Source of the DNA: a virus
Taxonomy: Duplodnaviria > Caudoviricetes
DNA: 64,000 nt
Reading direction: 5' to 3' (one strand)
IMG/VR virus record: IMGVR_UViG_3300032038_000005
Span: 32,001-96,000 of that record
The first letter of the stretch is position 1, and every line of letters begins with the position of its first letter. Positions 11,124-51,520 of the stretch are shown here, one piece after another. The translations under genes and the position numbers were made by a program. The notes beneath the pieces are model-generated. The model saw only the letters and a program-made list of their open reading frames with translations, did no database searches and was not told the DNA's origin.

Positions 11124-14054
11124 ATGGCAATGATAGAAGAAAAGACAAACAATCCCATGTCGGAATATCTGTTGAAATTACAATTGATTGTATCCAATAC
11201 CGAATTTATGAACAAAGAAGAATCCGACAAATATGAGACAATGGAAACTCGTATGAATGGTGAAGCATATGTAAATGCGATATTGAAAAAAGATGAATTC
11301 GATTCATATGATTGGTCAGATGTTGCATTAAAGCGCGCATTTAATGAATTACATTATCCAGATGACTTAATTCGGAAATACATTTTTCATCCAGAATATA
11401 TCCCAACAAACGTGAAAAATGCATTGACGGAGAAAGCACGAGCTGTTCGTATTGAAACATACAAAGAGCAAAACAAATACCACATAAACTTGACGGGGAA
11501 ACCATTAGAGGGAGTAGATCCCGATATTCCAATTCCCGATGATTTTTTTGCAATCTATGCAAAAGAAGGTAGTATCCATAAAGATCAATTGGTTCATACT
11601 TTGCCCGCAAAATACATGGAACTCTTTATGAATTCAAAATACTATAAAGAGATGCTACAGCAATATCCACATGTGGAATATTTGAGACATATGGGAACAT
11701 ACTCCATTCCCATTGAAATCTCTCGTCGTGCACGTGATGGGGATATTCTATTAATTAATGAATCTAAGCTACATACGCATCATGAGACATTTGGAAATGT
11801 ATCTGTTTCTCCGGAAATTGTTCATGAATTCACATCGGTTTATAAGAAGACACAACGTTATATCTACGGGACATTGCGAGGTGATTTCTCTTACATCTAT
11901 CCGAATTATAATTCCTTGATTCGATACTTGTCAATCTATATGACAATTGGACAATGTATGAATCAATTCATGCACAAATCTACCAAGTTGATTTACATGA
12001 ATAACCAAATTGCGAATGATTATTTTTCATTATATGGATTACCATCTGTCTTGATGGAGATGAATTCATTAACAAAATTCTTGAAAAAATTTCGGTTACT
12101 GTTAATGGACAAAGGAACAAATACTGTGTATCGAGTGAAAGACTTGATTGGTTATGAATATACGGATATCTACACATTGGTCATGGTAAAACAACAGGTG
12201 TTTGAGAATGGATATCCCATTTATTACAAAGATCCAGAGACTGGAAAATCGGTACCAAAACAGAATATCGTGTTTCGAAGAATGGGGACAGCTGATGACA
12301 ACGCTTCTTATTTCCAATTTAAGAATGAGACAAAGTCTTATACCGTAGAAGAAATTACATCAGGAGATCCTCGATGGTGGAATACACCAGAAGTAGAACG
12401 AATGATCAATGATATGAATTATACCTTATCCAATTCAAAGTATATTCAATTATCCACCATGATGAGTATGGATGATATTTGGTGGCAGACTTGCATTCTG
12501 TTACGTGGTTTATTAGACCATAAGAATGAAACGAAGTATACAGAAATTGAGATTTCACAGTCCGTCAATGGAACATCCACCATCAGCGTCTTTGATGCTG
12601 TTCTATTGCTAATCATTATGATGACTTGGAGCCATACGGATTTCAAGAACAATCATTTTGATGGAAACTTACATATTCCGAATGGAATGTTTAACAATGT
12701 CGCAACTTGTGTTGACATGTTATTCAATGGATTGGAAGCAGATGGTACTCCGAAGGAATTAAAACCCGGATTACCGTACAAAGTCGCCTCATTCAATTTC
12801 AATATCAAGAATGAATCGATCAAGAAATACAATGCCTTATCGACATATGCATATCTTGTTCCTGACATATTCATGCCAATGTTGGATACAATCTTAGAGC
12901 GTGAGTCTGCAAATATTGGAGAAGTCCTCATGCATGACGTTAAATTGTTATATGACTATTTGGGAACGAAATTAAGAACAGCATCAACCATTCATGAATT
13001 CCGTCAAGTTACAGATGCTTACAATTGGCTATTCTTGGTTGATCCCTTACGTGACTGGTCGGATGACACACAACAGAATGTGGAAACATTACTCATGCAA
13101 TCTTATGAGTTGAAATCCTATGAGTGGTATGCATTCAAGCATCTATTCCTTGGAAATGAATCATCCAATGCATCTATTCCATTCTTCTATAATGATGCGA
13201 CATCACCAACACAAATTCCCGTATATCGACTTTTAAATGAGAATGTATTGCAAGTGGATCCCGCATTCTCCAATCCAGACTACATGAATCAATTCATTAC
13301 TACTGTTGGAAAATGGAAATCCGAATTGATTGAACGATCTGATCTGTCAAATATGATCAAGATGCATTATCAATCCATCATCCAAGATAAAGTCTTATTG
13401 GATGTCTCCAATTCACAATATGGACCAAAATCATTTGAAGCATTGCTATTCCGAAACAATCCTACATTATATCGTGGATTACAACAGATGAAAGCTGACG
13501 GAGATCAACTGTTGATTCTGATGCGGTCGATCATCCGTGCTTTGGAATCGTATGCCAATCATCCACTCCCCGCATTGGAGTTTGAAGCAACGGGAAAAGA
13601 TCAGTATATCAATATCTTGAAAGAAGTCATCACTTACTTTAAATCATACATGGTAGAATTTACTAAGAGTGAGTTTCGATATCTCATGGGTGGGTTATTT
13701 GATCACGGTGGAAATTCGAATATGCTATTATTGTTTGATGAGATCAATCATATCACATTACGCATTTTACCTCGAGATGCATTACATTTGTATGATGTGT
13801 CATGTGCAAAAGCGCGAGTCATTGTCAAAGAGGATCTCTCGAAAATGTTATATGATGAAGCACTATTCCAAATCAAAACGACATACAAAAAATTGAAATC
13901 CTCACCATATGAATTGTGGTTTGATAATGGAGAGTGGATTGATCAACAACCGTTTGATGACTTAACGGATGATTCGGTAATCATTGCAAAATTAACCAAT
14001 GACAATTCGGGGACATACAAAATCATCATCAACAAAGAAAATGTGTTAAATTAA
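11124..14054 (+). CDS. large protein, probable virion structural (baseplate-type) protein
   Basis: ~976 aa, AT-rich codon use like the late genes; function inferred from jumbo-phage context only. Confidence 0.55.
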   Translation: MAMIEEKTNNPMSEYLLKLQLIVSNTEFMNKEESDKYETMETRMNGEAYVNAILKKDEFDSYDWSDVALKRAFNELHYPDDLIRKYIFHPEYIPTNVKNALTEKARAVRIETYKEQNKYHINLTGKPLEGVDPDIPIPDDFFAIYAKEGSIHKDQLVHTLPAKYMELFMNSKYYKEMLQQYPHVEYLRHMGTYSIPIEISRRARDGDILLINESKLHTHHETFGNVSVSPEIVHEFTSVYKKTQRYIYGTLRGDFSYIYPNYNSLIRYLSIYMTIGQCMNQFMHKSTKLIYMNNQIANDYFSLYGLPSVLMEMNSLTKFLKKFRLLLMDKGTNTVYRVKDLIGYEYTDIYTLVMVKQQVFENGYPIYYKDPETGKSVPKQNIVFRRMGTADDNASYFQFKNETKSYTVEEITSGDPRWWNTPEVERMINDMNYTLSNSKYIQLSTMMSMDDIWWQTCILLRGLLDHKNETKYTEIEISQSVNGTSTISVFDAVLLLIIMMTWSHTDFKNNHFDGNLHIPNGMFNNVATCVDMLFNGLEADGTPKELKPGLPYKVASFNFNIKNESIKKYNALSTYAYLVPDIFMPMLDTILERESANIGEVLMHDVKLLYDYLGTKLRTASTIHEFRQVTDAYNWLFLVDPLRDWSDDTQQNVETLLMQSYELKSYEWYAFKHLFLGNESSNASIPFFYNDATSPTQIPVYRLLNENVLQVDPAFSNPDYMNQFITTVGKWKSELIERSDLSNMIKMHYQSIIQDKVLLDVSNSQYGPKSFEALLFRNNPTLYRGLQQMKADGDQLLILMRSIIRALESYANHPLPALEFEATGKDQYINILKEVITYFKSYMVEFTKSEFRYLMGGLFDHGGNSNMLLLFDEINHITLRILPRDALHLYDVSCAKARVIVKEDLSKMLYDEALFQIKTTYKKLKSSPYELWFDNGEWIDQQPFDDLTDDSVIIAKLTNDNSGTYKIIINKENVLN

Positions 14055-29420: not shown

Positions 29421-31187
29421 TGGCAAAAGATAACATGACGGTTGAAAAAACTTCAACAGGTGCAATCATTCATGAACCAACATTGGAAGTGAAACGTAAA
29501 GCATTACAATATTTCTCATTACCAGATCCACAACGTGAATACTTTATTTATTCCGGATCGGATATTAATAAGAAACCAATCTTTGGACATGAACATGATG
29601 TACTATATATTTCATCTGGATTCTTAAAGATTAAAGATCCAGTCATTGATAATCTACGACTGCGTGCGACAAGAGTCACATCACGTGATGGTGCTCCAAT
29701 TGAGATTGAAATGAATCGTAAACCAAGATCACAATTACAAGTAGATTGTATCCAAATGATGGTAGAAACAGGTTATTCCAAAATGACATGTGAAGTAAAG
29801 CCTGGTGTTGACTTCCGGCACCCGTATCGAGTAATCGGTATGTAAAATTACCCTTTGAATTGCTGGGACACTTTAATGCTCATTGTACTACAACATGATG
29901 CCGAATCAGGCATGAGTGTGAATGTGACGAAAGTAAAAAGAAACAATGAGATGGTACATGGTTAAATCCTAAATACTAATAAGGAAAAATAAGTAATCAG
30001 CAGCGAAGCTCTGAACAGGAGAACGTTCAACGACTATCCATGATGGAGTAGGAATGATATTCCGAAGCGGAGGGCATCCCATTGGGATGATGATATAGTC
30101 TAAACTAAAATAAAGCGGAAAGACATTTATGGCATTATCTGTCATCGCACAACTTGGAAAGAAACCATTGATAATTGCACCAACTGCATTATTGAAGAAT
30201 CAATGGATTGAAAACTTTACGGATCTGGGTGTACCGGAATCCGATATTGCAACACGTATTTATGATGGACCAAATAAGAAAGTATGTGTTGTCACGATCT
30301 CCGCAATCGAGAATGAACTCAGAAAAGATTGGGAGGGATTGCTACATGTGTTGGCTCAAGCAAACTATGGAATCCGTATTACAGATGAAGCACATTTACA
30401 TTTGAAGGGCGTACTGAAGTTTGATGCCATTGCCAATATCAAACGTAATTACTATTTGTCAGCAACCTTAGGCAGATCCGATGAATCAGAAGATGATGTT
30501 CTTAATAGAGCTTTATTAGATGCTGACAGATTTGTTGGAGATAAGCGTTATGAAGAATATCAAGACGAATACATCAATGTGTATTTACAAGATATCTACT
30601 ACAATGCTTCACGAGAAATCTGTGACGAGCATTTCAAATATGGCAAGAAAGGTTTGATTTCAGCAACCTATTATAGAATGCTGATGGACTATCAACATGG
30701 AAAACCTTTTTACAATAATGCAATGCGTATGGTAAAGATTGCACAAAAGATCAAAGTGCAAGGAAAAGTATTATTGCTTTTACCATTACTTGATGCAATT
30801 CAACAAGTCAAAGAAGAGATGAAAAAAGATCCATACTTTGATAAATTAACCATCTCTTGTGTCGATGGACATATGAAACAATCAGAGAAGATGGAAGCAT
30901 TAGAGAAGGACATTATTTTATCAACTACCATGTCAATGGGAACAGGAGTCGACGTTTCTAACTTAGGAGCAGTTGTAAACTTTGATCAGAAGTCCTCTCT
31001 CATTATACTCGAACAGATTGTGGGTAGACTTAGAAATCGTGGATTTCAAACATACTACATTGATGTGTGTGACCATGTGAAATATGCCAGAGCATTTGAA
31101 AACTGGGGAATGAAGCGTCGTCAGTATATGCCTTACTTTCCGGGAGTTTCCAGTAAGCTTAAACTGTTACCAAAAATCATGTGTTAA
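29420..31187 (+). CDS. SF2 (UvsW-like) DEAH helicase, spliced: exon 1 29420-29808, exon 2 30116-31187 (486 aa)
   Basis: Splicing restores Walker A KPGVGKT; also DEAH, LSAT, GTGVD and QIVGRLR motifs. Confidence 0.9.
29809..30115 (+). ncRNA. group I self-splicing intron (IA2-like), no internal ORF
   Basis: Exon end ggtgU pairs with IGS Gcacc (29818-29822) via a U.G wobble; P10 ttccg/cggaa; P aattgctggga, Q aatcagcagc, R gttcaacgacta, S tgatatagtc; P3, P7, P7.1, P7.2, P8; terminal G at 30115. Confidence 0.92.
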
Positions 31188-32311: not shown

Positions 32312-32419
32312 TCATATATCAGAGATATCAGATTGGGTCTAACAAACAAACTCCTTTCATTCGGGAGTTTGTTTTTCTTGTGTTCTTTTTGTATGTTACC
32401 GATTATTTTAAATCTTCAT

Positions 32420-32438
32420 ATAAATATAATTAATATGA
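32420..32438 (+). promoter_or_regulatory. putative early promoter
   Basis: ATAAATATAATTAATATGA. Confidence 0.65.
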
Positions 32439-32563
32439 TATGAATAAGTATCACTTATTACATCGACAAGATGTTCCATAACAGTATGGCATATCACATC
32501 CACGTAGACTTCCATAAGGGTATCTAGTCAATATCCGTTTGCGGGATGCACACCAGGGGGTGT
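32436..32563 (+). ncRNA. conserved structured 5' leader RNA, copy 1
   Basis: Four-way junction, second domain and SD hairpin; stems covary with the copy at 49910-50044. Confidence 0.7.
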
Positions 32564-32567
32564 TATT

Positions 32568-33032
32568 ATGGAAACAAAGACATTCACATATGGTAGCTAT
32601 AAAGTTACCGTGGATCTCGAACCATTTAAGCGGTTCGATGGAGAAGAAGCCAGCGTCTTCTATGCCCATGTTAAATGGGTCGAAACAGCTGGATGGTGGT
32701 CTTACAAGGGCACATTCGAGATGCATTTCTGGATCGATGGGAATACCGGAGATCTCTGGGGTTCCCGTGAATACACAGTGCAGCACCAGATCTCGAATTC
32801 TCTGTCCATAAAATGGGGCTTTATCGAGCTCTGGATGCTCGACAGAGTTCCGGCACACATCATTGCTGGATTCATCCGGGGTGACGTTAAACAGTTCGAC
32901 GAAGTTGTGACAACTCAGTCACAGCTCAATGAACTGATTGCGATCCTTGCCAATGCCGGGGAACATGATGCTGAGGTTATCCTCATGAATCATTTCGCAG
33001 GCAGGTTTGGACCGCCGGACCTCACACTCTGA
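32568..33032 (+). CDS. hypothetical early protein (cassette 1 cargo)
   Basis: 154-aa ORF, GGGGGTG SD. Confidence 0.8.
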   Translation: METKTFTYGSYKVTVDLEPFKRFDGEEASVFYAHVKWVETAGWWSYKGTFEMHFWIDGNTGDLWGSREYTVQHQISNSLSIKWGFIELWMLDRVPAHIIAGFIRGDVKQFDEVVTTQSQLNELIAILANAGEHDAEVILMNHFAGRFGPPDLTL

Positions 33033-33039
33033 TGAAATG

Positions 33040-33113
33040 AATAACCGGGGGAGATCTCTGGGAGCTTGCTGTTTGTCGGCCCGACGCTCCATTCTCCCTC
33101 GGTTATTTTTTTC
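33040..33113 (+). terminator. terminator stem enclosing a conserved structured 3' element, copy 1
   Basis: 15-bp outer stem plus T-run; inner ggagc-ttgctgttt-gtcg(gcc)cgac-gctcc shared with 50510-50585. Confidence 0.7.
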
Positions 33114-33118
33114 TTTTT

Positions 33119-35272
33119 TTACATGTATTGATTGACACTTTGGAAGAATGCAATATCCGAATTGCTGAGTGTGTCCAATTGTGGTTCTTTTTCATATAGA
33201 TGTTTGTTATATTGATCAGCTCGATATCCATATGCATCTACACCACCTGGTTGATCAAATCCCATTCGTTGATCACGTTGATTTGAATTGATAATATCAT
33301 TCAACAACTGATTTTCATAAGCATTTGGATTCTCATAGTAGACAACATTATTGACAACTTCTTCTTGAATTGAATCCTCATACTGTTGGGTGATTTGATA
33401 TGCCTTCTCAAATGTTTGTTGTTCTTTGATAATACCGAATCGAGACAGGTCATAGCCATATGTTAATACATATAATACATGACAATATGCCATTACCACG
33501 TCATCATGTTCTCCACGGTCTGCTTGAATCTTACCGCCCATAATGGTTAAATTGGTAATATCTTTTACCAATAACTTTGAATAGATCATGTGACGATAAT
33601 CATGTACGAAGCGTTTCAATAGTGCCATCATGTCATTACGCACTTTTGCTGTGACATTTGTACCGATATATTTTTTGATCTGTCCACGATGCTTCATTTT
33701 CAATGCCGTATCCACAGTTCTTACCAAAGCATTCTTTGTGATATCCAACTGTGGATCGTGATAGAATCGATACTCTAATTGAGATTCTTGTACCCATTCT
33801 ACCAATGCCTTACCAACAGAATTGGTTTCTGGACAGAAAATAGCACGTGGTAACATCTTTGCTAATTGAGTAATGACACGTATCAAATCTAATGAACAAC
33901 CCAGATATGGAGAACAGATCTCTCCAACAATTTCCAATGTATAGGGATGAACGATAATCAATACTGTGTTGTCGCCACCCGTACCAGCAGCGATATCAAT
34001 GCCAATTAAGTATGGTACCGAGATGTCGAAATATGGATGTTCTGAATTTAAATCCTTTTCATGGATTTGATGATCATATACATACATCACATATTTTTTT
34101 AATAGCATGATTTCATGATCCGGATTTCGTACATGTGCAATCAAGTAATCAATGTCATCTTGTAAGAAGATACTGGTATCGGAACCACGATATCGTTCCA
34201 ATAGTACACCTCGACGATACTCTGAAATATTACCTGCAATTTCTGCAGCTCGATATTGTTCTGCAACCCATGCTTCTGTTTTGCGCAATTGCTTCCAATC
34301 GAATTCTATATGCAATTTTGTAACAGGTATCTTCATACCATCTTCTCCATCTTGTTCCATACCAGAAAACATCTTTTTGATATCTTCTTCTGGCAAGTCA
34401 TACATCTGTTCGGAGAACTTGGGAGTTGCTTCGATAATCTTCAATGCCTCTCTACCAATGGATGTTTCCAAGTCGCCAGGAGTTGATGCATACATCATAC
34501 AACAACGTTTTCCTAATTTACGTGCATTTTCACGAGCGGAGATCATAGCTGGTGCACCACCTGCGATAACAGAACCAACATATGGTAAGTATTCAAATTC
34601 GTCAATAAATCCACCAAACAAAGTATATCCTCTCAATTTGTCCTTTGCTTTGGATTCTGAATCTGCAACCGATACAATTGCAATGCTTGTACCATGTTCA
34701 TCATATTTCAAAGACTTTGTTCCCGGGGGATGTTTTCTCCCATACCAGGGATTCAAATAAGGTGGGAGTGATTCGATATAATCTCTCAGAATTCCTGCGT
34801 TATCTGTACAACGCGTCTCCGTCAAATGCAGATAGGGAATGTCACAATTTTGATATTCAAATAAAAACATATATGCAATGATTGCAGTCACCCATGTTGT
34901 TTTCATACATTGTCTTGGAGTACAGATAGAAAAATCAACAGAATGATCAAAACACCATAACATTGCAGCGGACATTCTCGATAGTTCGGTCTTCATTAAA
35001 CCCACACCACGTACAGGAATACGTAAGACTTCACGAAAAAAGAAATACGGATTTGCTTTACATTCTAACACAATCTTTGCAATCTCTTCTTGTGTGATAT
35101 CTTTTTTATAAGGATCGAGATCCTGTACTCCTAATTGTGGATACATGATACGAAGAGGAAAATACCAGTTCTTAATCCCAATGGTTTTCAATTCTTGGCA
35201 AGTTTGTAAAAAAGAAGTATTCGATGTGCCGAGATCATAATAGTTGTTGCCGATTTTACATACATTACTCAT
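33119..35272 (-). CDS. terL: terminase large subunit
   Basis: NPYFFFRE, Walker A variant PRQCMKT, LRG, Walker B FIDE, STPG, nuclease IGIDIAAG.GGD and HDDVVMA; start taken from the AGGAG SD. Confidence 0.9.
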   Translation of the reverse strand: MSNVCKIGNNYYDLGTSNTSFLQTCQELKTIGIKNWYFPLRIMYPQLGVQDLDPYKKDITQEEIAKIVLECKANPYFFFREVLRIPVRGVGLMKTELSRMSAAMLWCFDHSVDFSICTPRQCMKTTWVTAIIAYMFLFEYQNCDIPYLHLTETRCTDNAGILRDYIESLPPYLNPWYGRKHPPGTKSLKYDEHGTSIAIVSVADSESKAKDKLRGYTLFGGFIDEFEYLPYVGSVIAGGAPAMISARENARKLGKRCCMMYASTPGDLETSIGREALKIIEATPKFSEQMYDLPEEDIKKMFSGMEQDGEDGMKIPVTKLHIEFDWKQLRKTEAWVAEQYRAAEIAGNISEYRRGVLLERYRGSDTSIFLQDDIDYLIAHVRNPDHEIMLLKKYVMYVYDHQIHEKDLNSEHPYFDISVPYLIGIDIAAGTGGDNTVLIIVHPYTLEIVGEICSPYLGCSLDLIRVITQLAKMLPRAIFCPETNSVGKALVEWVQESQLEYRFYHDPQLDITKNALVRTVDTALKMKHRGQIKKYIGTNVTAKVRNDMMALLKRFVHDYRHMIYSKLLVKDITNLTIMGGKIQADRGEHDDVVMAYCHVLYVLTYGYDLSRFGIIKEQQTFEKAYQITQQYEDSIQEEVVNNVVYYENPNAYENQLLNDIINSNQRDQRMGFDQPGGVDAYGYRADQYNKHLYEKEPQLDTLSNSDIAFFQSVNQYM

Positions 35273-37481
35273 TTGATACAGCTCCTGTTTCATTTTGAAC
35301 CGGCGCTGGTTTAGCAGCAAGATCATTAAATTGATTCAGCAATTCATCCATTTTAGCCGCAACCCCCTCAATACCTTGGAGATATAAATCAATTGATGCG
35401 AAGAGATCTATCGTTGATTTAATGAAATTTCCATCCCATTGTAGATACTGTTGAATATTCGTCAATTGATTGCGTGCAGCATTAGATAAAATTCCATCTT
35501 TTACATTAGCATCCGCGGTAGATACAGCATTAAGACAGGCAATTAATCCATTATTTTTATTTGGATCCCCAATTATGTTACTAATCATTGCTAATTTTCT
35601 TGATAGACTTTCACGAATACCGATATACTGAGCTAATGGTAAATTAAACTCAGCAATTGTTTCACCTTTATAGGCGTTCGTAAATTGATCATAGAAATTA
35701 ACGATATATTTTCTATATTCGAATGCGAATTGACTCATATCGAGATTTAACGAAAATGCTTCAATAGTTTTTTTCCCTTTCTCAGCAACCTTAGAAACTC
35801 CCTTCATTAGCTGATTACCCATTGAAGACATTGTGCCTTTAAGAGTTGAGAGCTCTCCTTGTTTGGTATCACCGGTGTACCGCTGTATTTGGCTTCCCCC
35901 ACTTTTTTGAGCTTCAAATTGTTTAAAATATTCATCGAGTTCTGATTGGCTCTTTGGAATGGGATGTCCATTTTTTACGCTGTTGATTATAAACACATTG
36001 AATTCCTTGGCAATATTCTTAATCTGTTCTTTAGACATATTCGGATTTGATTTCGCTATTTTATTTGCGGCAAATGTCATAAACTTCCTTTGCTGTTCTT
36101 CCGATATTGATATTTTTGTTGCGGTTAACTTTTGCTTATCATTTTCAGGATTTTGATTTTCCTGTTTCTGTTGTTGTGGCTTTGGAGCAGCTGCTGGTGG
36201 TTCTTGATTCTCTTTAGCTGGTGTTTCAGCTGGTGTTACAGGTGTCTCCTCTTCCTGATAAAATGAGTCCCAACTGATGATAGGGATATCATATTCCGAA
36301 AATTGACCAGATTGTTGCTGTTTTAATAACTGATTACATTTGATAATATAATATTTAATATAATTTTCCAATGCTAAACCACTATAGTCTCCAGATTTGA
36401 TTTTCTGTTCAACTTGTTCAAGCGACATTTCTTGTTTTGATAAAAAGGTTGAGGCATGTGAGTCGATCAATCTAAAATCGATGGGAACATGCAAAACACC
36501 TTGCTCATCATATCTTACAAGATCCACAATTTCGTCAATATTAATATTTGGAGGAATAACACCTGCCACGCCAGAATTTTGGATAATCAATGAAATGAAT
36601 TTTTTTGCATTTTGAGAAACCTGACTTGCAAGTTTGTTAATATTCTCTTTCATAGCAGACATTTCTTGTGTGAAATTTTCAGCAGCCTGATTTATTGCAT
36701 CAGAAGCATAAGTTTTTACGTCATTCATCATATCTTGTGCTTTAGCAGTTGCATTATTCATCATATCTTGTGCTTTAGCAGTTGCATTTCTAAGGGTATC
36801 TTGTGCTGCACTTTGAACGTAATCCTTTCCTTTCTGAACTAACTCATCAGCTTTACCTTTTGCATATTCTTTTGCTTTTTCGTCTAAACCTGCTTGGTGA
36901 GCTAAATATGCACCACCAGCTAATGCTGCAACTGTTCCGGCCTTTCGAGCAAAATCTCTTCGACTTTCTTCACGATCGCTTCTTTTTTCAAACTCAACAA
37001 ACATCTTGTAGCATTCTTCCCGGAAGTTTTGATCATTCTTCATGGCGTCGAGCATTTGTGAAGTTAACGGTACCATTTCTGGTTCTTTACTTTTCATTTG
37101 CTCCAAATTATCAACGGTTTTCTTTGCTTCATTGATTGCCTGGTCACTACTCATTTTTTGTGTTTGATCATTTACGACTCCGAATAATTTACGTAAAAAA
37201 TCCCACATTTTTTGCAGAATACCTTTTTTAGCAGTATCCTTATTATTCTGATCAGTTTGATCAACCCCGGTTTGGTTGGTAGCATCGTTACTTTGATTAG
37301 ATCCCCCTTGTTGTCCAGCTTCTTGAATGAGTATAGCCCTTAATAAATCATCATTATAACAGGTCTCTAACATCCATATTGCTTTTCCATATGAATTCAT
37401 TAATTCGTTTGCAACTAAGAAATCATAGTTTTGTTTAGAAGAACGGAACTCATCTAAATTAAAAAAGAATGAATTTTCCAT
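35265..37481 (-). CDS. hypothetical Q/K/A-rich helical protein, possibly internal virion protein
   Basis: 738 aa; AT-rich, distinct codon use; internal repeat. Confidence 0.7.
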   Translation of the reverse strand: MENSFFFNLDEFRSSKQNYDFLVANELMNSYGKAIWMLETCYNDDLLRAILIQEAGQQGGSNQSNDATNQTGVDQTDQNNKDTAKKGILQKMWDFLRKLFGVVNDQTQKMSSDQAINEAKKTVDNLEQMKSKEPEMVPLTSQMLDAMKNDQNFREECYKMFVEFEKRSDREESRRDFARKAGTVAALAGGAYLAHQAGLDEKAKEYAKGKADELVQKGKDYVQSAAQDTLRNATAKAQDMMNNATAKAQDMMNDVKTYASDAINQAAENFTQEMSAMKENINKLASQVSQNAKKFISLIIQNSGVAGVIPPNINIDEIVDLVRYDEQGVLHVPIDFRLIDSHASTFLSKQEMSLEQVEQKIKSGDYSGLALENYIKYYIIKCNQLLKQQQSGQFSEYDIPIISWDSFYQEEETPVTPAETPAKENQEPPAAAPKPQQQKQENQNPENDKQKLTATKISISEEQQRKFMTFAANKIAKSNPNMSKEQIKNIAKEFNVFIINSVKNGHPIPKSQSELDEYFKQFEAQKSGGSQIQRYTGDTKQGELSTLKGTMSSMGNQLMKGVSKVAEKGKKTIEAFSLNLDMSQFAFEYRKYIVNFYDQFTNAYKGETIAEFNLPLAQYIGIRESLSRKLAMISNIIGDPNKNNGLIACLNAVSTADANVKDGILSNAARNQLTNIQQYLQWDGNFIKSTIDLFASIDLYLQGIEGVAAKMDELLNQFNDLAAKPAPVQNETGAVSNE
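36723..36788. repeat. 33-bp perfect tandem duplication (NATAKAQDMMN x2)
   Basis: attcatcatatcttgtgctttagcagttgcatt occurs twice. Confidence 0.9.
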
Positions 37482-49747: not shown

Positions 49748-49893
49748 ATCCTTATTCTCCTTTACTATAAATTTGGTTTTGTATTAGAATCTATGGAATC
49801 GGATATAGAGCCTAAACAATTATAATTTTGTGTATTATAAGATACTATATTTGAACGCCCCATATGGGGCGTTCTATCATTTTGATTTTTCAT

Positions 49894-49912
49894 ATATATA
49901 TAATTAATATGA
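49894..49912 (+). promoter_or_regulatory. putative early promoter
   Basis: ATATATATAATTAATATGA, one mismatch to 32420-32438. Confidence 0.65.
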
Positions 49913-50044
49913 TATGAAGAAGTGAAATGCTTCTTACATCTCGTCCCAGAGGTGGTTCCTATACTGTTAGGCATATCACATTCACTTGGGCATTGAACTA
50001 AGGCGACTTGTCATCGTCAGTCTAAGGGATGCACCGTGGAGGTG
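49910..50044 (+). ncRNA. conserved structured 5' leader RNA, copy 2
   Basis: Same stem order as 32436-32563, with compensatory changes. Confidence 0.7.
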
Positions 50045-50049
50045 ATTTT

Positions 50050-50499
50050 ATGTTCGATTATCTCAACCCCTATCTGTTCGGGGACAAAGAACAGGATGAT
50101 GTGCCGGAGGCTGTGCCTACTCCGACGCAGCAGAACCCCAGCATCAACTTCAACGTTAATGCTGAGGCGGTAACTGCCTTAGTTAGCGGGTTGGTGGCCA
50201 TTGCCGGCGCCTTTGCGAAAGCGAAGGCACAGGTACCCGCTGCACCGGCAGCACCCGCTGCACCGGCAGCACCCGCTGCTGATGACAACCTCCGTCAGGA
50301 GGTAGCCCAGCTGCAGTCTGGAATGAAATATCTCATTCAGCGGCAGGCAACCGCTGACAGAGATGCAGCCTACGATGCCGCAGAAAAAGCCTTCCAGGCA
50401 GCTGTGACAAAAGACCCCTCCAAAGCAATGGAGGCACTGGCTGGGTACAATGCAGCACGCAAGGCCGCTGACGAAGTCTACCACAAGTTGGTAGGCTAA
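50050..50499 (+). CDS. Ala-rich hypothetical early protein (cassette 2 cargo)
   Basis: GGAGGTG SD; 149 aa; hydrophobic helix followed by a PAA linker. Confidence 0.8.
   Translation: MFDYLNPYLFGDKEQDDVPEAVPTPTQQNPSINFNVNAEAVTALVSGLVAIAGAFAKAKAQVPAAPAAPAAPAAPAADDNLRQEVAQLQSGMKYLIQRQATADRDAAYDAAEKAFQAAVTKDPSKAMEALAGYNAARKAADEVYHKLVG
50235..50279. repeat. 18-bp tandem repeat x2.5 (PAAPAA)
   Basis: acccgctgcaccggcagc repeated. Confidence 0.9.
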
Positions 50500-50509
50500 G
50501 TCAAAACAT

Positions 50510-50585
50510 AATAACCGGGAGCGTTCCGTTCGGGAGCATGCTGATGTCGGCCTGACGCTCCCATTTGCTCCCGGTTATTTTTTTT
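50510..50585 (+). terminator. terminator stem enclosing a conserved structured 3' element, copy 2
   Basis: 14-bp outer stem plus T-run; inner gggagc-atgctgat-gtcg(gcc)tgac-gctccc. Confidence 0.7.
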
Positions 50586-51520
50586 CATTTTTTCTTGAGT
50601 TCGTATGTCCGTAGCAAAGAGTCTTTTGCATAACCACCTTCACGGTTGATTTCCACAATCTCAGAAATGGGATTTGGATAATCTTCCAATAGGTCTCCAT
50701 TATCATTGAATGTCGCGAATTCTACATCATCGTCCGAATCTCCAATCATCACATAAGTTGTTGGACGTTCTGTTTCATACTTCGCATATTGATTCACATT
50801 TGGAGATGGAAGAATATCATCTAATAAACCAGCTGCTCGATTGACATCATTCTCAACAGTTTGTGGATCATATTGCGGTGATGGATGATACTCCACGGGA
50901 ACTGCAACGGCACTGTTGAACACATCATCCAACATAGAATGTCCCATCTCAATAGAACCAGGAGTGGTTGGTACGACACCAGGATCTGCATTTGTTAATT
51001 GTTTGGAAGATTGCTGTTGTTTTAAACGTAATTCGGAGATGTTCTTTTTGATGGTGATCATCTCTTTGTTGATACCCGTTACAGCAGAACGAGCTGCTGT
51101 TAATGCTTGCATGGCTAAGATGTCATTTTCATTCAATCCGAATTTGTCTTTATCCTTTAATCCTTCCATTAATTTTTTTTCGAATAATTTGGTAATACGA
51201 ACTTGATCAGCAGCAGAAGAACGAAGTGCAGCTAATTCGGATGTGTAAATCTTATTCGGATCGATACGGTTATCCACTAATGCTCCAGGTGAACGAGACG
51301 CTTCATCAAATGTTGCCATGATTCCCGTCACACCACCCCAGTTATCAGAACCAAGCGGTTCCAGATAATGTGTCATATTGGGATATAATGTGGGTTCCGA
51401 TTTATAATTATGAAACTCATTTGCGAATGTAGTTGGATCATAATATAACTGTTCTTGTTGTTTGGAATCCTGATCTGGAATCATCTGTGAAATCTCACGA
51501 AGTGAATCAAATAAACTCAT
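50585..51520 (-). CDS. hypothetical protein with coiled coil
   Basis: 311-aa ORF. Confidence 0.75.
   Translation of the reverse strand: MSLFDSLREISQMIPDQDSKQQEQLYYDPTTFANEFHNYKSEPTLYPNMTHYLEPLGSDNWGGVTGIMATFDEASRSPGALVDNRIDPNKIYTSELAALRSSAADQVRITKLFEKKLMEGLKDKDKFGLNENDILAMQALTAARSAVTGINKEMITIKKNISELRLKQQQSSKQLTNADPGVVPTTPGSIEMGHSMLDDVFNSAVAVPVEYHPSPQYDPQTVENDVNRAAGLLDDILPSPNVNQYAKYETERPTTYVMIGDSDDDVEFATFNDNGDLLEDYPNPISEIVEINREGGYAKDSLLRTYELKKK

Follow-up and report, generated by a model that had tools for sequence, protein, structure and literature searches.

Two cassettes with homologous ends and unrelated genes

The stretch of DNA analysed here (the window) comprises 64,000 nucleotides (nt), bases 32001-96000 of the viral record IMGVR_UViG_3300032038_000005 (G000; 202,267 bp, 38.9% GC, CheckV completeness 75%), and it carries two stand-alone genes, each enclosed in a cassette, which we term c1 (32372-33113) and c2 (49853-50585). 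The two cassettes have the same layout around unrelated open reading frames (ORFs), with a common promoter, a ~130-nt leader and a ~75-nt compound terminator. Together with a third cassette of the same record (c3) and a fourth on a related contig, they probably represent insulated early-gene units (morons) among which homologous recombination re-assorts the modules, similar to the promoter-early stem-loops (PeSLs) of T4-type phages. The phage is an uncultured bovine-gut jumbo phage with its own multisubunit RNA polymerase (RNAP) and a distant relative of the Bacillus AR9/PBS1 group. A phage multisubunit RNAP subunit is encoded in the window (match to the phage RNAP family phrog_2986), its closest cultured relatives being those of Bacillus, Listeria and Staphylococcus jumbo phages (28-29% identity), and the runs containing the sequence are bovine gut metagenomes (runs X1-X3; DNA contigs only, compared at 85% likeness). 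A complete relative of 294,548 bp (G001) was reached via terminase. The features of the two cassettes and their immediate neighbours are as follows (positions are those of the window; SD, Shine-Dalgarno sequence; aa, amino acids).

32344..32374, + strand: terminator hairpin of the upstream 263-aa ORF, left border of c1.
32403..32436, + strand: predicted c1 early promoter, an AT-rich upstream part followed by ATATAAATATAAT-TAATAT; fits the AR9 virion-RNAP consensus, with the predicted +1 at G 32437.
32436..32496, + strand: c1 leader domain 1, a predicted four-way junction; P1 stem formed by 32436-32442 with 32490-32496.
32443-32459, 32460-32474 and 32476-32489, + strand: arms of c1 domain 1 in the predicted fold.
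32497..32548, + strand: c1 leader domain 2, a long interrupted hairpin plus an apical hairpin, with compensatory changes relative to c2.
32550..32563, + strand: predicted short c1 hairpin ACACC/GGUGU overlapping the SD; its pairs are invariant, without covariation support.
32568..33032, + strand: c1 cargo ORF, 154 aa (P0001), ORFan, 49% GC.
33040..33113, + strand: c1 3' element, 74 nt, a 15-bp outer stem round a conserved inner hairpin, then a U-run.
33119..35326, - strand: large terminase gene, convergent, ending at the c1 3' element.
49853..49874, + strand: palindromic GC hairpin GAACGCCCC-ATAT-GGGGCGTTC ahead of the c2 promoter, forming the stem-loop part of the putative composite terminator-promoter.
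49877..49910, + strand: predicted c2 early promoter, ATATATATATAAT-TAATAT; predicted +1 at G 49911.
49910..49978, + strand: c2 leader domain 1, a predicted four-way junction; P1 stem formed by 49910-49916 with 49972-49978.
49917-49935, 49937-49954 and 49958-49971, + strand: arms of c2 domain 1 in the predicted fold.
49979..50044, + strand: c2 leader domain 2, with a long hairpin (49979-50031) and the SD hairpin (50032-50044).
50050..50499, + strand: c2 cargo ORF, 149 aa (P0002), Ala/Pro-rich, 57% GC, ORFan.
50510..50585, + strand: c2 3' element, a diverged copy of the compound terminator, with the U-run abutting the stop of the convergent 311-aa gene.
50585-51520, - strand: convergent 311-aa gene, with its stop at the c2 3' element.

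The AT-rich promoter region of c1 ends in TTAATATGATATG (to 32442), and 5 nt separate the 3' element of this cassette from the stop of the large terminase gene, which is convergent; c2 sits antisense between two minus-strand genes. The 5' flanks of the two ORFs are 69% identical across ~160 nt, the first ~45 nt being near-identical, and the 3' flanks are ~79% identical. In between, P0001 and P0002 gave no BLASTP alignment at E<=100, and the two ORFs shared no DNA or six-frame similarity (blastn with word size 7; tblastx). An earlier reading of the window made from the letters alone (the sequence-only reading) had described two stand-alone genes lacking detectable protein similarity and had proposed a check for homology between them, as simple paralogues would show; the comparisons confirm the description and detected no such homology, and we conclude that the two-cassette observation is real.

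A structured leader shared by c1 and c2

Folding the c1 and c2 leaders jointly with RNAalifold gave 36 base pairs, none of which is broken in either copy; 7 pairs carry compensatory double changes and a further 6 carry one-sided, wobble-compatible changes. When the 3' partners were slid by 1-3 columns as a control, we counted 0-1 double changes, with 34-51% of cells paired. The comparison involves two sequences only, and the structure was derived from the same sequences on which the pairs were counted; the conservation of leader structure is suggestive rather than statistical proof. Each leader folded alone from TGATATG adopted the same architecture, namely a 7-bp P1 stem round three hairpins (the four-way junction), a long interrupted hairpin and an SD hairpin of 4-5 bp. 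The P1 stem predicted to close the junction in both cassettes consists of TGATATG paired with CATATCA. Shuffle z-scores of the isolated leaders were modest (-2.6 and -1.3). In two strains that carry c1 (L070 and L071), changes fell only at loop or internal-loop positions or converted G-U to A-U, and two unpaired stretches of the leader, GGCAUAUCACAU and GGGAUGCAC, are invariant. Searches against Rfam 15 returned no match on the leader or the 3' element, either at the gathering threshold (whole window) or at E<=5 (three cassettes); ARAGORN found no tRNA-like genes in the two cassette regions. When IMG/VR was scanned with exact patterns for three features (inner 3' motif, leader, arrangement closing P1), none gave a match.

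These features could also be read as those of an undescribed cis-regulatory RNA that binds a protein or ligand and times or gates translation of a small early regulon, independently of the 3' element, an explanation that we consider unlikely. In its favour, the two leaders retain every pair, with 7 compensatory ones, at 69% identity, and reach the same topology from independent folds; the invariant stretches are single-stranded, the SD is partly occluded in both copies, and Rfam holds no match. Weak contig data add a third variant of the leader, seen in two runs, and, in X3 record 15, a c1-like promoter and leader that are not followed by the c1 ORF. On the other hand, sequence is available for only two diverged copies, whose leaders gave modest z-scores in isolation; the analysis turned up no candidate binding partner, and the pairs of the SD hairpin never vary. 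In addition, the leaders of other early cassettes in the clade are unrelated and range from 42 to 255 nt, indicating that long leaders are common in this clade. The broader proposal that the leader, with its 5'-terminal four-way junction from +1, long hairpin and SD hairpin, represents a new cis-acting class of phage RNA, we hold to be doubtful to the same degree. Here, a factor of the phage or host would recognise the leader and govern the stability, the timing of translation or the handling of certain early mRNAs, with the apical module of the terminator, conserved in sequence, as a second recognition element. If true, and taken together with the paired 5' ends predicted for virion-RNAP transcripts of the clade, it would mean that AR9-related jumbo phages control early genes through a further, undescribed layer at the RNA level.

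A predicted early promoter with a paired 5' end

The 19-nt promoter core occurs, allowing <=2 mismatches, in 6 copies in G000 and 18 copies in G001. In the Bacillus jumbo phage AR9, the injected virion RNAP recognises early promoters with the consensus AAATATATATTAT-(6N)-G+1 (PMC5312081). Our promoter copies match this consensus at 10.4 of 13 positions on average, and at up to 12, in the register that ends 6 nt before the G of TGATAT, as against 2-9 of 13 in other registers; a sigma-70-type -35/-10 pair was not found at the c1 promoter. We infer from the sequence that this is a phage-wide early promoter of the AR9 virion-RNAP class, and that the cassettes would be early genes with predicted transcription starts at 32437 and 49911. 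The likeness to AR9 extends to the extended conserved AT-rich element, the G located 6 nt downstream, the agreement in register (10-12/13), and the tens of copies per genome situated before small genes (Lavysh et al. 2017, PMC5312081). The promoters differ from those of AR9 at 1-3 positions and in an extra conserved ATTATTT block upstream and ATAT downstream; a 5'-terminal stem is not reported in PMC5312081.

Such a stem appears throughout the set of promoters. Among 24 good copies from G000 and G001, at least 5 of the 6 nt of UGAUAU were paired as a 5' strand in 21 when the first 80 nt were folded (minimum free energy structure), compared to ~23% in shuffled downstream sequence. Most copies read GAUAUA-GAAA-UAUAUC, a simple GAAA hairpin. 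Promoter variants are compensated downstream (GATAG..CTATC; GATAAAG..CTTTATC), and the pairing partner of the 3' bases of the promoter lies 4 to ~60 nt away, which together argue for pairing in the RNA rather than a DNA operator of fixed spacing. Given that the 5'-terminal stem is clade-wide, the four-way junction of c1 and c2 can be seen as an elaboration of it; c3 and the fourth cassette have the simple form. TGATAT ends every early promoter of the clade and has its complement downstream; further examples are found at window position 74981 (G000:106981) and at 13900-13935 (- strand) of contig L013. In B. subtilis, 5' stem-loops such as those of the aprE and ermC leaders stabilise mRNA. The stems described here resemble these in lying at or within a few nt of +1, ahead of the SD; a four-way junction is, to our knowledge, not a feature of aprE/ermC-type leaders. 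By analogy, in a Bacillota-type host the paired 5' end plausibly shields the mRNA from decay that depends on its 5' end.

A strong GC hairpin (<= -9 kcal/mol, most <= -15) lies within 60 nt upstream of 13 of the 24 promoters, versus 70 of 300 random windows, the hairpin of c1 being cut by the edge of the scan window. This hairpin often reads GGGGCC-ATAT-GGCCCC. Hairpin and promoter together thus have the make-up of a composite terminator-promoter, as in PeSLs.

The 3' element is a predicted compound terminator

The 3' elements of c1 and c2 fold at ~-35 kcal/mol (z = -6.0 and -5.3 versus shuffled sequences) and are followed by a run of 7-8 U. Two compensatory pairs are located in the upper part of the outer stem, and the inner hairpin is conserved in sequence. 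In all four cassettes the element is the only intergenic hairpin between the cargo and the convergent gene, and the U-run lies 0-6 nt from the stop of that gene (4/4). The base of the stem is formed by AAUAA/UUAUU, leading into U-rich tails on both strands, and the covariance model built for the element (R1) also matches on the reverse strand. The convergent stop that it abuts and the U-rich tails on either strand make the element a probable bidirectional intrinsic terminator, which would insulate the early antisense or convergent gene from the late genes. A loose pattern of the outer stem gave 8 matches in IMG/VR, all unrelated hairpins.

The sequence-only reading had described a near-identical promoter followed by a homologous folded leader of ~130 nt, a homologous folded element within the terminator, base pairing kept at both ends while the primary sequence drifted, and no resemblance to a known RNA family. 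Each of these points held: the leaders share 69% identity, one predicted fold and 7 compensatory pairs; the 3' elements are ~79% identical, with the strongly negative z-scores and 2 compensatory pairs given above; none of the 36 leader pairs is broken, with compensatory changes in both elements; and Rfam matched neither. Its hairpin over the SD stood in part, being predicted in both copies (4-5 pairs) with invariant pairs that lend it no covariation support.

Leader, promoter and terminator are separable

A third cassette, c3, lies outside the window at G000:6350-7312. Its 3' element (G000:7233-7312) is 93% identical to that of c1, while its leader is unrelated to the c1/c2 leader past the first hairpin. 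The cargo of c3 is a 245-aa HExxH protein with an HEVGH motif (G000:6486-7223; contig L003 1637-2374) and gave weak signals for Peptidase_M48 (Pfam) and the metalloprotease family phrog_87 (PHROGs). An orthologue of this cargo occupies the same slot in G001 (153 aa, 37% identity, E = 5e-13) with a short, different leader and a different terminator, indicating that the terminator has been exchanged around a resident gene. A fourth 3' element, 98.6% identical to that of c1, is found on contig Ga0326512_10000162 (L062) behind an unrelated 95-aa ORF with another leader. This contig covers a part of the genome absent from G000, and its cassette, from promoter to U-run, is absent at the equivalent site in G001, i.e., it is an insertion relative to G001. 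A longer contig in ENA, k141_680498 (L072; 259,834 bp), is 100% identical to G000 across the 6,450 bases fetched, and may hold the genome part missing from the 202-kb record, the L062-type cassette included. The 3' element thus stands behind four unrelated ORFs with three non-homologous leaders (c1/c2, c3 and L062). Cassette c1 is itself a mosaic, having its extended promoter-upstream sequence and terminator in common with c3 and its leader in common with c2.

Contigs from other bovine samples provide weak data of the same kind: one type of leader is c2-like in its 5' part and c1-like in its 3' part, a different cargo is joined to a c1-like 3' end, and in X3 record 15 a c1-like promoter and leader are followed by 261 nt that do not match the c1 ORF. 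In a contig of run X2, a c1-like terminator end (33120) is followed by 20 other letters and then by a c1-like promoter-upstream region (32374); this joint could come from cassettes repeated in tandem in another strain or, equally, from a circle.

The sequence-only reading had favoured a single RNA chassis, in which the leader and the 3' element act together. Such a unit might work through 5'-3' pairing, circularisation, localisation or mRNA export. Consistent with this, both elements occur together in c1 and c2, both conserve their structure, and the inner part of the 3' element has kept its sequence. However, the 3' element also occurs with two other non-homologous leaders, and the energy of a duplex between leader and 3' element was no better than that obtained with shuffled leaders in all four cassettes. 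Moreover, scanning with R1 found 3 copies in G000 only and 0 in the relatives G001-G003, although those phages share the promoter class. The unrelated leaders, the distribution of R1 matches and the lack of complementarity to the leader argue against a co-dependent chassis, end pairing and circularisation, and we consider this explanation very unlikely. The co-occurrence on which the chassis was built was found in c1 and c2 and broke down in c3 and L062; the covariance-model scan of the 3' element, a check proposed in that reading, recovered within G000 the copy behind the unrelated ORF of c3, besides those of c1 and c2, and none in G001-G003; and with the promoter found genome-wide and the 3' element occurring with three non-homologous leaders, the co-dependence of the two ends is not supported, and neither is end-to-end pairing or circularisation. 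Among the options listed in that reading, cassette shuffling in the manner of PeSLs fits best. Rather than an undescribed kind of system, as had been suggested, the frame is best read as PeSL-like modular shuffling, and is not a new kind of genetic system.

Other 3' modules are likewise found behind unrelated ORFs. In G001, an element of ~50 nt (88% identity) lies behind unrelated ORFs of 93 and 159 aa, driven by promoters at 214987 (+) and 87460 (-); it shows a compensatory change from CCUCA/UGAGG to CCGGA/UCCGG and has no Rfam match. The presence of this element behind two unrelated ORFs indicates that module sharing is general in the clade. A second terminator family, with a TTCCATTCGG loop, covarying stems and a conserved TTTTTCTTGT tail, is located behind unrelated ORFs in both phages, at the following sites.

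Window 32344-32385.
G001:126840-126880.
Tail of the cassette at G001 211170.
Contig L013 14125-14175 (- strand).

The cassettes occupy hypervariable slots

All three G000 slots are present in G001 with other ORFs, the same promoter class, and their own leader and terminator. The slots lie between the helicase and terminase genes, between genes for 1260-aa and 311-aa proteins, and between genes for 364-aa and 175-aa proteins, and hold different ORFs in G000, G001 and G002. In the G001 slot equivalent to that of c2 (G001:264895-265126), the leader measures ~230 nt and includes the promoter core in inverted orientation (265028, -), and the cassette there ends in a double terminator with loops sharing GCCGCCGG.

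Strains L070 and L071 carry the c1 cassette at 97.6% identity with a different left neighbour, and their homology to G000 begins at 32372, immediately past the upstream terminator. A cassette transfer, considered because c1 in L070 is 97.6% identical versus 84% for the left flank, was rejected, since the terminase flank of L071 is also 95% identical. In L070 (ENA contig k141_3550818, 2781-2983), the 3' element of c1 leads into the right flank of the c3 slot, not into terminase, the joined flank being 86% identical to G000:7236-7440. This joint represents either a genuine rearrangement at the terminator that both cassettes share or a chimera of the assembly.

Joints of this kind bring to mind site-specific recombination at the 3' element, as an integron attC-like site or a homing-type target. 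As in integrons, a structured imperfect inverted repeat, kept more in structure than in sequence, stands behind each of the unrelated ORFs; the L070 joint falls at the 3' element, and other contig joints fall at element ends. Yet no tyrosine or serine recombinase (PF00589, PF00239), and no integrase, was found in the 202-kb record (75% complete), each cassette brings its own promoter, target-site duplications are absent, and the stem ends AATAACC/GGTTATT, read directly, do not fit the attC core RYYYAAC/GTTRRRY. The element also carries a U-run and sits as a terminator, unlike attC, and the L070 joint may be an assembly chimera at the 75-nt repeat. We therefore regard site-specific recombination as highly improbable.

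Whole cassettes contain 44-52% GC, compared to 35-39% in the 2-kb flanks, and the cargo ORFs alone 45-57%. Searches for cargo homologues returned only the proteins themselves or those of near-identical strains, hence ORFans; Pfam and PHROGs gave nothing beyond the weak HExxH metalloprotease signal of the c3 cargo, an Atlas search on cargo gave no usable match, and blastn of the whole cassette against cultured phages gave none. AlphaFold2 models had a mean predicted local distance difference test score (pLDDT) of 47 (P0001) and 43 (P0003). Between G000 and the strain variants, the c1 ORF has 6 synonymous changes and 1 non-synonymous change, indicating that it is a real gene; it is under purifying selection. 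Such an ORF should diverge more slowly than its flanks, so that duplication of one gene followed by divergence of the coding parts past recognition, for which the similar lengths (154 and 149 aa) and identical architecture might speak, is hardly credible for c1 and c2: their non-coding flanks retain 69-79% identity, whereas neither BLASTP nor blastn (word 7) nor tblastx showed any similarity between the ORFs, which also differ in composition and predicted secondary structure.

Proposed re-assortment of insulated early-gene modules

The re-assortment of cassette modules by homologous recombination, which we favour, builds on the homology of the modules, the conservation of their structure, the distribution of their copies and the variability of the slots, to which it adds an inferred promoter class and recombination mechanism. 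In this proposal, a cassette would consist, in order, of an upstream terminator hairpin, an AR9-type early promoter, a 5'-paired leader, the SD, a GC-richer ORFan, and a compound hairpin with a U-run. The injected virion RNAP would read the promoter, with +1 at the G of TGATAT; the SD hairpin would tune translation, and the 3' hairpin would end transcription both ways, including that of the convergent neighbour. Promoter, leader and terminator would be separate modules, each a small sequence family, and homologous recombination between module copies, within a genome or between co-infecting relatives, would re-deal the modules and the ORFs that they flank. The modules may thereby serve as short homology arms, each product keeping a promoter and a terminator. 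Unrelated ORFs would be found between homologous ends because recombination re-assorts modules and ORFs, and base pairing would be conserved because the modules must still work.

Several points weigh against this proposal. The leader is long and elaborate for a mere stabiliser, and the invariant unpaired GGCAUAUCACAU and GGGAUGCAC hint at recognition of a specific sequence. In the 3' element, conservation is higher in the apical ~30 nt than at the top of the outer stem, a pattern that a plain terminator does not need. The covariation statistics are weak, because only 2-4 independent copies are at hand, and they were counted on the very sequences from which the consensus structure was derived. 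The transcription start, the early timing, termination and any stabilising effect are all predicted. Finally, since no two flanking repeats have the same orientation, the PeSL-type route of mini-circle excision is not obviously applicable, and exchange needs a crossover at each end.

Morons, a concept associated with Hendrix and Juhala, have their own promoter and terminator, are inserted between genes and deviate in base composition; classical morons have been described in temperate siphoviruses and are expressed from the prophage. The cassettes described here resemble them as stand-alone units located between or antisense to core genes, with a predicted promoter and terminator, a presence that varies between relatives, and cargo ORFs of 45-57% GC versus the genome average of 39%. 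They differ in that they would be early lytic genes of a jumbo phage and have family-like shared regulatory ends.

The closest parallel to our cassettes is provided by PeSLs (Arbiol et al. 2010, PMC2839356; Comeau et al. 2014, PMC4122927). In both, a repeated composite of terminator hairpin, AT-rich stretch and early promoter lies beside ORFans in hypervariable regions, differences between phages fall at the modules, and the modules bring start and stop signals to whatever they flank; here, breakpoints coincide with the motifs at the left border in L070/L071, at the L062 insertion and in the c1/c2/c3 mosaics. There are also clear differences. The PeSL promoter is sigma-70-like, whereas the one described here fits the AR9 virion-RNAP consensus; the transcribed 5' end is paired here (21/24), and two cassettes share a 130-nt structured leader; the right homology arm is a separate compound terminator family and not a second PeSL; and each cassette stands singly, runs antisense or convergent to its neighbours and lacks flanking direct repeats, so that a mini-circle route is not evident.

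If correct, the re-assortment proposal would extend the promoter- and terminator-mediated modular shuffling of T4-like phages to an uncultured rumen jumbo phage, apparently with its own virion RNAP, and the recombining modules would include long structured RNAs, beyond the ~70 bp of promoter. It predicts that early transcripts of the clade start at the G of TGATAT with a 5' end that is always paired. The compact frame of promoter, leader and terminator would insulate a gene placed antisense in late operons, and the ORFan cargos are candidate genes for early takeover of the host or for anti-defence. We consider the clade-wide stem at +1, with its compensatory promoter variants, and the four-way-junction leader to be the most original parts.

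Another RNA element in the window

A group I intron is located in the window at 29798-30113 on the + strand (Rfam RF00028, 67.4 bits, E = 6e-15), directly upstream of a 352-aa helicase ORF; the helicase gene is probably split by this intron.

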